Counted from the stretch's first letter, positions 24,869 through 47,997 are shown. The stretch is DNA of 64,000 bases from Candidatus Heimdallarchaeota archaeon (GCA_019057815.1 JAHLWR010000001.1:240233-304232); one strand, 5' to 3'. Notes: generated from the letters alone by a model not told the origin. Numbers and translations are program-made.

Positions 24869-25387
24869 TCATTCTTTGAACATAGCATTTTCTTGTCTAA
24901 GCATTCGTTTTTTCATCGGGTGGTTACTTTTTCCTGCAAATTTACCTATTTTACCACTAGAAAGAATTACTCTATGACAAGGAACTATTGGCCCAAATCT
25001 GTTTTTCATCATAACATTGCCAACAAAACGAGCGCCATACGGAACGCCAACTCTTTTGGCTAGTTCTCCATAGGAAACAACTTCTCCTGCAGGTACTTTT
25101 AGAAGTTCATTTAAAACATCAATTTCTTTTTCCGTAAATCCACTAAAATCAAAATTAATTTTTGGTAAATCAAAAGATGTGCCATTCACAATATCATTGA
25201 TAGCATCTAAAATTGGATGATCTCTTTCTTCAATTTCCACTTCTTCTTTTGCTATTTTTGATAAATATGCAACAGCTTCTTTTTTGTTTTTGAAAGAATA
25301 AGAAGTATAATATAATTTTTCTTCATTAAGAAGTATACCTGTCCATGAATCCTTATTTTTTGATACAATAATCTTCATCTTATACAC
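24869..25387 (-). CDS. ogt: Methylated-DNA--protein-cysteine methyltransferase
   Basis: SYGELA, ARFVG, PCHRV active site. Confidence 0.9.
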   Translation of the reverse strand: MYKMKIIVSKNKDSWTGILLNEEKLYYTSYSFKNKKEAVAYLSKIAKEEVEIEERDHPILDAINDIVNGTSFDLPKINFDFSGFTEKEIDVLNELLKVPAGEVVSYGELAKRVGVPYGARFVGNVMMKNRFGPIVPCHRVILSSGKIGKFAGKSNHPMKKRMLRQENAMFKE

Positions 25388-25440
25388 AACATTTTTCTAT
25401 TATTTCACTATATAAAACTTACATCAGAAAAAGGGTAATA

Positions 25441-26490
25441 GTGAAACAGCTGAAAGAGAAGATGCTCAAATACCTTAAAAAGGCGTGTCCAAACAAAAAA
25501 GATTTACAAATCAACGAATTTTGCAATATTACTACTGGATGGGAGACAGAGATATTTTCGTTTACACTAGTATTTCAGGAAAATGGAAACGAAAAGCAAG
25601 AAGAGTTAATCTTAAGGATGTATTTAGGTAATTTAGCAGAAAATAAAGCTGTGAAAGAATACAAATCTATGAAAAAACTTTTTGAAGCAAAATATCCAGT
25701 TCCTGAACCCTTGTTGGTTGAAAAAGATTCATCTATTCTAGGAAAACCTTTCATGATGATGGAGAAAATTGATGGAGAAAACATGGGAAAAAGGTTTCTT
25801 ATAGCACTTGAAACTAGCGATCAAGAAATAATTGACAACATGATAATACCCAAGTTTTGTGAACTTTTTATTAATCTTCATGATTTGGATTGGGTGTCTA
25901 TTTCTGATGAAAGAATCAAGCATGTATACTCAAATCCATACAGTTTCATAGTAAACCATCTATCCAATTTTGAAAAGAAACTTGATTATTTCAATAAGGG
26001 GGAGCTAAGACCGATTACCAAATGGTTAGCAGATAGAATAATAAATGTTCCTTGTTATAAAATGTCAGTTATACACCAAGATTTTCACCCTCATAACATA
26101 CTAATAACTAAAAACGAAAGATATTATGTTATAGATTGGTCAAGTTGTAGTATTGGAGATTTTAGATTAGATTTGGGGTGGACATTACTACTAACATATG
26201 CTTTCACATCAAAAGAAATTCGAGATAAAATCTTATCGACATATGAAAATCTATCTGGGTGGAAAGTAGAAGAGATTGAATTCTTTGAAGTTTTAGCTAT
26301 TTGTAGAAGATTATTTGACATATCTATCTCATTTAATCAGGGAGCTGAAGAGCTAGGAATGCGTAAACAAGCAGTAGAAAAAATGAAAGAGAGTGGTTTT
26401 CATATAAAGAGGGTTTATTCTTTATTGCAAGAAAAAACTGGTATCTCAATAAAAGAGATAGAAAACCTAATTAGAGAAATATCAGAATAG
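25441..26490 (+). CDS. APH/choline-kinase-like phosphotransferase
   Basis: HQDFHPHN (Brenner motif), IDW, GD..DL. Confidence 0.85.
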   Translation: MKQLKEKMLKYLKKACPNKKDLQINEFCNITTGWETEIFSFTLVFQENGNEKQEELILRMYLGNLAENKAVKEYKSMKKLFEAKYPVPEPLLVEKDSSILGKPFMMMEKIDGENMGKRFLIALETSDQEIIDNMIIPKFCELFINLHDLDWVSISDERIKHVYSNPYSFIVNHLSNFEKKLDYFNKGELRPITKWLADRIINVPCYKMSVIHQDFHPHNILITKNERYYVIDWSSCSIGDFRLDLGWTLLLTYAFTSKEIRDKILSTYENLSGWKVEEIEFFEVLAICRRLFDISISFNQGAEELGMRKQAVEKMKESGFHIKRVYSLLQEKTGISIKEIENLIREISE

Positions 26491-26646
26491 AAAAACGTTC
26501 TATCTTGATATTTGGCAATTTTTAGTTGCCAAATGAGCATTTTCCATTTTCTGTAAAATCTATTAATCATTATGTAACCTCAAAAAAATCTCGAAAAAAG
26601 ACAATAAAATATAAATAAAAAGTCTACAAAGATAAATGGGATAAAA

Positions 26647-27168
26647 ATGTCAGATAATAGTAAAACTGGTAACTGGACAAAAATCATTAAAGCAGTCAGA
26701 ACACCTATTGCTTATTTCACTCTTTTGGCACTTATTATTGAATCAACCCTTATTGCTTTAGGAAAAGACCATATTGAAGTTGTAATTGGTGGATTGGCGC
26801 TAATAGGTTTACTCATAGTTGTTGTTGGACTTATTTTATGGAAGAAACCTGAAGTCTTCAATCCTAAAACACCGTTTATCATTGGTTTTGATTTTCCTAA
26901 TATTGTAGATCTCAATGTTGATCAATGTACAATGCTAGTTCGTGACAACGTGCAAGAAAATAAATATAAGGGAAGGGCTAATATTACAGACGACTTTGGA
27001 AACTGGGTTCTTTCGTTGAATCATCCAAATTCCCCTTTGACTGTTGATTATTCAGACTCAATTGATATTACACTTGTTGAAATGCCGGATGATAATGGTA
27101 ATATAAAAAAGTGGACAACACGTCCATTTAAAGTCAATAAAATTCTAAAAAAGGTGAAAAAGCTATGA
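26647..27168 (+). CDS. Hypothetical protein, two N-terminal TM helices + beta-rich soluble domain
   Basis: Hydrophobic segments at about residues 20-38 and 44-65; stop overlaps next start (ATGA at 27165-27168). Confidence 0.75.
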   Translation: MSDNSKTGNWTKIIKAVRTPIAYFTLLALIIESTLIALGKDHIEVVIGGLALIGLLIVVVGLILWKKPEVFNPKTPFIIGFDFPNIVDLNVDQCTMLVRDNVQENKYKGRANITDDFGNWVLSLNHPNSPLTVDYSDSIDITLVEMPDDNGNIKKWTTRPFKVNKILKKVKKL

Positions 27169-27467
27169 ATAAACAAATAGAATTCAAATTTAACAATGAT
27201 GCAAAATCCTTGCCTAACATCTCTAGAGGAAACTACACATGGTATGAATGGACAATTTATATGGACGAAGACGATTCTAAACTGGATTCAGTTGATAAAG
27301 TCGAGTACCACTTACATCCAAGTTTTCCTGATCCGATTCAAGTTGTAACAAACCGTGACACAAAGTTTGCTTTTAGTGCAAGAGGATGGGGAACATTTCG
27401 AATTGATATCGTAATCTACCTCAAAGATGGTACAGAAGCACATGCTCATCACAATCTTAAGTTCTAG
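27165..27467 (+). CDS. Stand-alone YEATS-domain protein (prokaryotic YEATS)
   Basis: YEWTIY...VDKVEYHLHPSFPDP...FSARGWGTFRIDIVI matches the YEATS pattern (HxWxVY...V.KV.F.LH.SF..P...F.....GWGEF); AAGGTGA SD. Confidence 0.88.
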   Translation: MNKQIEFKFNNDAKSLPNISRGNYTWYEWTIYMDEDDSKLDSVDKVEYHLHPSFPDPIQVVTNRDTKFAFSARGWGTFRIDIVIYLKDGTEAHAHHNLKF

Positions 27468-27610: not shown

Positions 27611-28303
27611 ATGGATTCGGAAAAAAAAGTTAGTTTTCCTTATAGAGGAGAGCACATTGAAGGGATAATCAAACGATTGAATCGGAAAACAGTAACAGTC
27701 ATTGTCAATGATCAGATTCTATTTAGAGTACCTTACCAATTATTAACTCCAATAATTAAACCTCCTCTGAAAAAAAACATGAAAAAGAATGCTTATACAA
27801 ATAAAAAATGGACAAAAGAGCAGAACAGAGATTATAAAAAGTCCAATAATGCGGAAATTTATTTACCATCTAAGAACACGTTAATATCATTAAAAACAAA
27901 TGTAAAAATGCTTGCAAAGACGTTAAAAAATGAAGACAATATCATGATAAAACAATACTCAAATAGTATTATAGAGGAACTAAATACTGAATATAAACTT
28001 CCCTCATTGCCAGTATTTACTGGTGGAAAACGAAGATTAACAAGAAGTGGGAACCAATATTATGGTGTTCATAGAACAAGAGGAGGAGAAAATAAACATT
28101 CATCAATTTCGGTATATAGTAGAACAGCTAAAACGCAAAAATATGTAGCTCCTAAGACCTTTTTGAGAACGCTAATTCATGAGTGGTCTCATTCTTTCGA
28201 TAGGTATAAGTTGAAATTATCAAGCACTTATCATACAAAAGGATTTTACGAACGAGTTAACTTAATTTACAACGAGCTAAAAAAGCCTTTAGAAAAAAAT
28301 TGA
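27611..28303 (+). CDS. Zincin metalloprotease, SprT/WLM-like, with N-terminal SH3-like barrel
   Basis: FLRTLIHEWSH...YHTKGFY (HExxH plus downstream H...F); very basic. Confidence 0.65.
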   Translation: MDSEKKVSFPYRGEHIEGIIKRLNRKTVTVIVNDQILFRVPYQLLTPIIKPPLKKNMKKNAYTNKKWTKEQNRDYKKSNNAEIYLPSKNTLISLKTNVKMLAKTLKNEDNIMIKQYSNSIIEELNTEYKLPSLPVFTGGKRRLTRSGNQYYGVHRTRGGENKHSSISVYSRTAKTQKYVAPKTFLRTLIHEWSHSFDRYKLKLSSTYHTKGFYERVNLIYNELKKPLEKN

Positions 28304-47826: not shown

Positions 47827-47997
47827 ATGATGATAGTACAGTCCAAGGTTAGGGAATATATCAAAGAGCTCGGCGACTATAAAGTTGGCGGAGACTTACT
47901 TAAAGCTCTTGATGAGAAACTCGCTATAATCGTTAAGGCTGCAGCTGGTCGTGCTAAAGCTAATGGTCGTAAGACTGTTTCCGCACGTGACCTCTAA
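47827..47997 (+). CDS. Histone-fold protein, short alpha3 / face-to-face type (56 aa)
   Basis: MMIVQSKVREYIKELGDYKVGGDLLKALDEKLAIIVKAAAGRAKANGRKTVSARDL with RKTV...D histone L2 motif; AAGGTG SD; T-rich terminator after; below ORF-track cutoff. Confidence 0.9.
   Translation: MMIVQSKVREYIKELGDYKVGGDLLKALDEKLAIIVKAAAGRAKANGRKTVSARDL

Follow-up and report, generated by a model that had tools for sequence, protein, structure and literature searches.

The gene under study lies in a stretch of 64,000 nucleotides (here denoted the window) from the 95%-complete, ~32% GC genome of a Heimdall-group Asgard archaeon. It occupies positions 27165..27467 of the plus strand and encodes a protein of 100 amino acids, which Pfam, a search of PDB sequences, AlphaFold2 and Foldseek all identify as a stand-alone prokaryotic YEATS domain (pYEATS). 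Directly upstream, at 26647..27168 (+), we noticed an ORF encoding a 173-aa protein with two putative transmembrane helices (2-TM; here denoted the partner), recognised by its hydropathy and by homologues that lie beside pYEATS. The ATG of pYEATS and the TGA stop codon of the partner overlap by 4 nt in the sequence ATGA (27165..27168, +), suggesting translational coupling, and the same 4-nt overlap is present at loci L002/L003-L006, L007 and L035/L036. Within the 3' end of the partner, 7 nt ahead of the pYEATS ATG, is a putative Shine-Dalgarno-like GGTGA (27153..27157, +). An A/T-rich, TATA-like box, AAAATATAAATA (26606..26617, +), located ~30-40 nt before the partner ATG, is a candidate archaeal promoter from which the two genes may be transcribed as an operon.

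The surroundings of the pair in the window include an MGMT-like gene, an APH kinase and an ABC transporter. The first two are found upstream of the operon (24869-26490), where a divergent MGMT-like DNA-binding-domain protein (172 aa, -) is encoded next to an APH/RIO-like phosphotransferase (349 aa, +). The locus comparison revealed no link of this MGMT-like/APH gene pair to the pYEATS pair. Synteny with an APH kinase, considered for the window and the Heimdall locus L002, was dropped because a comparison of the two APH genes with each other yielded nothing at E 1e-5. Just 3' of the pair, at 27611-28303 (+), is an ORF of 230 aa that carries HEWSH, an HExxH-like motif, close to the C-terminus and matches nothing in Pfam, NCBIfam or PADLOC. 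This ORF is 90% identical in a same-genus MAG and is not beside the pair at other loci.

The window protein matches the Pfam model of pYEATS (PF20305) along its entire length (model 1-73/73) with 81.6 bits and E 3.7e-23, where the gathering cut-off is 26.9 bits, and it matches the YEATS model (PF03366) with 58.7 bits and E 5.4e-16. A reciprocal calibration gave the opposite order for the fungal Taf14 YEATS domains, which scored 88-96 bits with YEATS and 38-50 bits with pYEATS. Pfam detected no second domain in the 100 residues. Likeness to PF20305 extends to the domain size of ~100 aa and the conserved pocket, and by these sequence comparisons the window protein is a member of the prokaryotic pYEATS family, in its short prokaryotic form. 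The trees described below place it among pYEATS sequences, subject to the AU test given there. Hydropathy analysis found no hydrophobic segment in pYEATS, which is therefore probably cytosolic. The same-genus MAG Candidatus Heimdallarchaeota archaeon 8H_bin2 carries a copy 96% identical to it.

Eukaryotic YEATS domains (Taf14, Yaf9, GAS41/YEATS4, YEATS2, AF9 and ENL) read histone lysine acetylation and crotonylation. When PDB sequences were searched with phmmer, the YEATS domain of Taf14 matched the window protein at E 1.4e-8, followed by GAS41, YEATS2, AF9, Yaf9 and ENL, and a profile matched eukaryotic YEATS at E 3.7e-15. The phmmer alignment pairs H51, S53 and F54 with Taf14 H59, T61 and F62, and G74, W75 and G76 with Taf14 G80, W81 and G82 (numbering of the full-length chain 5sva_n). 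These six pocket residues are identical or conservative relative to Taf14, and the H-x-S/T-F and G-W-G motifs are aligned exactly. The first three belong to the pocket loop H49-L-H51-P-S53-F54 (HLHPSF, aa 49-54; codons at 27309..27326, +) and the last three form the pocket strand G74-W75-G76 (GWG, aa 74-76; codons at 27384..27392, +), in agreement with the original prediction, which had described intact LHPSF and GWG motifs. The motif match is far beyond chance. In Taf14 and AF9 complexes, the acyl-amide is sandwiched and hydrogen-bonded by the H/S/F and G/W/G residues aligned here.

An AlphaFold2 model built from an alignment of 72 homologous domains (pLDDT 94.7, pTM 0.85) is a beta-sandwich of seven strands; it superseded a poorer model from the single sequence (pLDDT 60.6). 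The top 50 Foldseek matches of this model in the PDB are all eukaryotic YEATS domains, ranging in TMq from 0.69 to 0.78 and including GAS41, AF9 and Yaf9, with Taf14 the best (TMq 0.78, probability 1.00). The window protein is thus predicted to adopt the Ig-like YEATS sandwich with a complete His / Ser-Thr / Phe plus Gly-Trp-Gly pocket, and the proposed kinship with eukaryotic YEATS readers was confirmed as homology.

Several features set the window protein apart from its eukaryotic relatives. It is about 30-35 residues shorter at the C-terminus: its end (...NLKF) aligns with Taf14 residues 104-107, where the alignment stops, and an end point after the last conserved L-x-L/F strand is common to the homologue alignment. 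It has no BET, AHD or coiled-coil partner domain and is paired with a membrane protein. The equivalent of Taf14 D104, a residue that presumably holds the arginine preceding the acyl-lysine in Taf14 and AF9 structures, is N97 in the window protein and is variable among prokaryotic domains; hence recognition of the flanking sequence is probably different in pYEATS. A profile search of PDB sequences found no prokaryotic YEATS structure among PDB entries. The seven modelled strands compare with eight reported for eukaryotic YEATS domains (PMC8556138).

The original prediction had further read the intact pocket as a eukaryote-like trait retained in an Asgard genome. We therefore place the pocket in the context of the whole family. 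Across 254 prokaryotic domains, H51 is conserved at 91%, S/T53 at 93%, F54 at 89%, G74 at 90%, W75 at 88% and G76 at 93%, indicating that an intact pocket is a trait of the family and not an Asgard peculiarity, and that the pocket is a selected function of pYEATS as a whole. Together with the higher score of the window protein against pYEATS than against YEATS, and with the distribution, profile ranking and trees given below, this conservation leaves the idea of a special retention unsupported.

An exhaustive HMMER search of 1.84 billion representatives returned 1524 pYEATS clusters at E<=1e-3, of which 425 reached E<=1e-10; tandem arrays of two or three domains are frequent among them. The 150 best hits all matched both Pfam models (150/150), and the extra domains found in them are TIR_2 (12), papain-like Peptidase_C1 (8), M10 matrixin, C39, caspase, patatin and TPR. 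In closer clade members the domain is joined to pentapeptide repeats, TPR or PG_binding_1. These fusion partners are the repertoire of prokaryotic conflict systems. A 2026 preprint counts pYEATS among the ligand-binding domains already reported in conflict-system contexts and predicts that sensor domains of this kind respond to soluble metabolites; pYEATS goes without mention in the text and supplement of the eLife 2020 conflict-systems paper. The phage collection that we searched contained no pYEATS-like sequence. An annotated pYEATS gene is present on a conjugative cyanobacterial plasmid, Stanieria cyanosphaera pSTA7437.01 (L039, 263453-263887), flanked by transposases/IS, a HigA antitoxin (toxin-antitoxin), an integrase and a thermonuclease fragment.

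In the TIR-, caspase-, peptidase- and ParA-linked proteins of conflict systems, PF20305 domains are linked to an effector or NTPase, whereas the window domain stands alone. We found no TIR, caspase, peptidase, patatin or STAND gene joined to it or beside it, and neither pYEATS nor its partner has a match in PADLOC. In contrast to the catalogued PF20305 proteins of conflict systems, its coupled gene product is a 2-TM protein that falls outside known families.

The partner, on which the original prediction was silent, has two strongly hydrophobic helices at ~aa 21-39 and 45-63, seen by hydropathy in 9/9 homologues, followed by a C-terminal domain of ~105 aa with conserved G-W and W-x-x-x-P-F motifs. 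Its charge bias is weak and gives no clear indication of the orientation in the membrane. Searches of Pfam, NCBIfam, PADLOC, PDB sequences and the ESM Atlas gave no match to the partner protein. The possibility that its C-terminal domain is a divergent YEATS domain was ruled out (hhalign probability 0.2%). Cap15-type 2TM-beta-barrel effectors of CBASS and PycTM of Pycsar are small two-TM effectors of bacterial defence. The partner resembles them by analogy, in its size, in its layout (two-helix hairpin at the N-terminus, small soluble domain after it) and in a gene position beside a sensor-type protein, but PADLOC detected no sequence relationship, the only signal being a match of one partner homologue to PycTM at E 0.073. 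A complex prediction for partner residues 66-173 with pYEATS gave a score of 0.02, which is below the mark, was obtained without controls and counts neither way.

pYEATS is rare among the relatives of the source organism. A match is present in 12/400 genomes of the phylum, in 2/30 genomes of the window's family besides the window's own and in 1/25 of a neighbouring genus; two closed genomes of the family carry neither pYEATS nor the partner gene. A profile of the partner matches exactly 3/41 relatives, the same 3 that carry pYEATS. Among GTDB species representatives, scanned with an alignment of 12 sequences, the closest homologues (39-48% identity) belong to Heimdallarchaeota, Thorarchaeota and a Thermoplasmata MAG; remoter ones belong to Thermodesulfobacteriota, Gemmatimonadota, Acidimicrobiia, Myxococcota, Halobacteriales, Zixibacteria and Acidobacteria.

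Two maximum-likelihood trees were computed from ~100 alignment columns, a quick one of 185 rows and a careful one of 77 rows under LG+C20+F+G4; their eukaryotic rows are of the fungal Taf14 family only, AF9/ENL, GAS41/Yaf9 and YEATS2 being left out. In both trees the eukaryotic rows split from all prokaryotic rows at 100/99, and the window protein falls inside a 95/95 clade of 19-20 rows, made up of Heimdall, Thor, Thermoplasmata and Halobacteriales sequences and 11-12 metagenomic sequences without taxonomic label. Phylogeny had been proposed as one check that would distinguish a prokaryotic relative of eukaryotic readers from a recent transfer nested among bacterial domains. In the trees the protein stands apart from eukaryotes, in a clade that is archaeal and metagenomic, and with a short domain and Taf14 as the sole eukaryotic paralogue an AU test did not reject a forced Asgard+eukaryote clade (delta lnL 12.06, p 0.247). 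A recent transfer was neither fully borne out nor rejected by these results, and the trees by themselves do not decide against the original prediction. When the 254 domains were ranked by a Taf14-derived profile, the window protein came 25th and the Heimdall proteins 21st to 31st at 44 bits (median 35.8, best 57.1), with the Thor proteins near rank 150; ~20 non-Asgard prokaryotic domains are more Taf14-like than the window protein. In these comparisons the Asgard pYEATS sequences appear to show no special affinity to eukaryotes.

Two Asgard genomes of other families, at loci L009 (G102) and L014 (G372), encode a stand-alone pYEATS with no 2-TM partner upstream. Their sequences group together at 100/100, apart from the clade of the window protein; therefore the phylum holds at least two pYEATS lineages, and the separation suggests independent acquisitions.

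Within the clade of the window protein, the partner gene immediately precedes pYEATS wherever DNA 5' of pYEATS is available. The loci come from three Heimdall and three Thor genomes, a Thermoplasmata MAG, a Halobacteriales MAG, a genome of Asgard family f20 and the metagenomic contigs L034, L035, L037 and L038, the contigs having GC contents of 32-63%. At L034 (187-718) the partner is split into ORFs of 134 aa and 52 aa that both match the partner profile, reflecting either a frameshifted, decaying copy or an assembly error. The partner was not found at any of the bacterial pYEATS loci examined (8/8). An all-against-all comparison showed that the partner and pYEATS are the only genes common to the loci. 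Some neighbours are of a defence or mobility type, namely a PLD-like nuclease and a DNA methylase at the Thor locus L022 and an RHS protein at the Halobacteriales locus L030, as are the genes around pYEATS on the Stanieria plasmid; an Obg-like GTPase and a flavoprotein, a housekeeping-like setting, are found at the Thor locus L024. In the Heimdall relative CR1378_bin_8 (L002) the pair is followed immediately by an Arf-family small GTPase gene (L002:6675-7259, -), with genes for GNAT acetyltransferases at a distance of 2-6 kb; at other loci neither of these accompanies the pair. The pair is an apparently translationally coupled two-gene cassette that occurs sporadically and independently of context across distant archaea, and, given its different neighbourhood each time and its sporadic occurrence, it behaves as a horizontally moving accessory module. 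We found no earlier description of the pYEATS/2-TM pairing in that part of the defining pYEATS literature which we covered, and we do not assert with confidence that the observation is novel.

We propose that the two genes form a self-contained operon in which pYEATS comes second, after the gene for a membrane protein composed of a two-helix hairpin and a novel soluble domain of ~105 aa. Through its conserved pocket the pYEATS subunit would sense an acyl-amide ligand; a protein lysine carrying an N-epsilon acyl group is the simplest candidate, another small acylated or planar metabolite the alternative. pYEATS would then work with or on the membrane partner, which may be an anchor or a membrane-active output, in the manner of small two-component modules for stress or against invaders. 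Ligand binding by the pocket and joint action with the partner are inferred steps; the scheme resembles small sensor-plus-2TM modules of prokaryotic defence and agrees with the effector fusions seen in relatives. Since pYEATS, in its clade, always lies just after the 2-TM gene and belongs to a widespread prokaryotic family, a mobile sensing module is likelier than a chromatin reader. With a confidence little above even, we favour the reading that stand-alone pYEATS and the 2-TM protein constitute a mobile two-gene ligand-sensing membrane module and are neither a reader of chromatin tails nor specifically an ancestor of eukaryotic readers. A more specific version would make the cassette a signalling or anti-invader system of archaea that has not been described before, whose pYEATS reads acyl-lysine (or a related acyl-amide) and thereby switches a membrane-active partner; we regard it as tentative and unlikely. 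Because the neighbourhoods in the window and at L024 are housekeeping-like, the defence reading rests mainly on analogy with the fused relatives.

These same two neighbourhoods, the conserved pocket and the GNAT genes 2-6 kb from the pair in L002 would also fit a housekeeping acetyl-lysine reader outside any conflict, in which pYEATS would recruit acetylated proteins of the cytosol to the membrane partner, or the membrane partner to them, within routine acetylation-based regulation. The very patchy distribution, with the gene missing from close relatives including closed genomes, argues against a core regulatory role, and nothing but the pair itself is conserved nearby. We consider this explanation unlikely.

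The pocket may instead hold a ligand other than acyl-lysine, such as an N-acetylated sugar, a cell-wall fragment or a nucleotide-derived signal, and the module would then be a small-molecule receptor. A close clade member (P0027) is fused to a peptidoglycan-binding domain, the position of Taf14 D104 varies in prokaryotes, and the response to soluble metabolites predicted in the 2026 preprint points the same way. All residues that contact the acyl-amide in eukaryotic complexes are kept, however, which makes an acyl-amide on a lysine-like chain the simplest ligand to expect, and we judge a different ligand to be distinctly improbable.

For a link to chromatin, the histone content of the genome matters. 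The original prediction had placed a tail-less histone in the window, probably the 56-aa ORF at 47827..47997 (+). This ORF does encode a short histone-fold protein, similar to three solved ones of bacterial type (9f2c, 8fvx and 8cmp; E 5e-6 to 2e-5), but it scores 14.8 bits against PF00808, below the cut-off of 21.4 bits. It also matches the DUF1931 protein 9qt0, the whole set ranging from E 5e-6 to 4.5e-5. A search of the entire 95%-complete genome gave nothing above the PF00808 cut-off either, an unusual result in an Asgard archaeon. With only a minimal 56-aa histone-fold protein and no canonical histone found, the chromatin link is weaker. A histone tail is probably not the ligand, and the suggestion that the ligand may be non-histone stands. 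The features looked for in a chromatin-complex subunit were likewise missing from the window pYEATS: it has no second domain, no tailed histone was found in its genome and its partner is a membrane protein.

A YEATS protein with a conserved pocket was already published for the Heimdall group in 2018, and pYEATS is a curated Pfam family in annotation use, the product name 'pYEATS domain-containing protein' being current in RefSeq. The published protein, HeimC3_47440 of Heimdallarchaeota LC_3, was described as having a 'strictly conserved' acyl-lysine site, and a role as 'reader' of the tailed histones of archaea was suggested for it (Henneman et al. 2018, PLoS Genet, PMC6136690). Compared by its published description only, it resembles the window protein as a YEATS protein of a Heimdall-group genome with a conserved pocket. 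HeimC3_47440 was linked to tailed histones with no mention of a membrane partner, whereas tailed histones were not found in the genome of the window. That earlier claim, the six pocket residues kept relative to Taf14, the fold match, the Heimdall scores of 58.7-63.6 bits against the eukaryotic Pfam model (30-55 in other pYEATS checked) and the unrejected Asgard+eukaryote clade are what a vertically inherited Asgard relative of eukaryotic chromatin readers, close to the YEATS ancestor and reading acetyl- or crotonyl-lysine on chromatin or nuclear-type proteins, has in its favour; we hold it to be very improbable, given that eukaryotes are placed elsewhere in the trees, that ~20 non-Asgard domains are more Taf14-like and the Thor members rank far lower, that few genomes of the phylum have the gene, that the short 100-aa prokaryotic architecture has no chromatin-complex domain, that pairing with a membrane protein is obligate and that a canonical tailed histone was not found in the genome.

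The mobile ligand-sensing membrane module that we favour bears on two questions. With regard to eukaryogenesis, the Asgard YEATS is a sporadic accessory gene common to other archaea and related to bacterial conflict-system domains, and phylogenetic evidence would have to be much stronger before it could be ranked among vertically inherited eukaryotic signature proteins. As to lysine acylation, the existence of prokaryotic reader domains was called an open question in a 2021 review (Lammers 2021, PMC8556138). If the more specific acyl-lysine version of our proposal were true, the cassette would contain the first functional acyl-lysine 'reader' outside eukaryotes. pYEATS keeps the full eukaryotic pocket under strong conservation, and both the 100-aa window protein and the homologue from a haloarchaeon lend themselves to testing. 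The role of pYEATS in prokaryotes can be approached concretely through its conserved association with a novel 2-TM protein.
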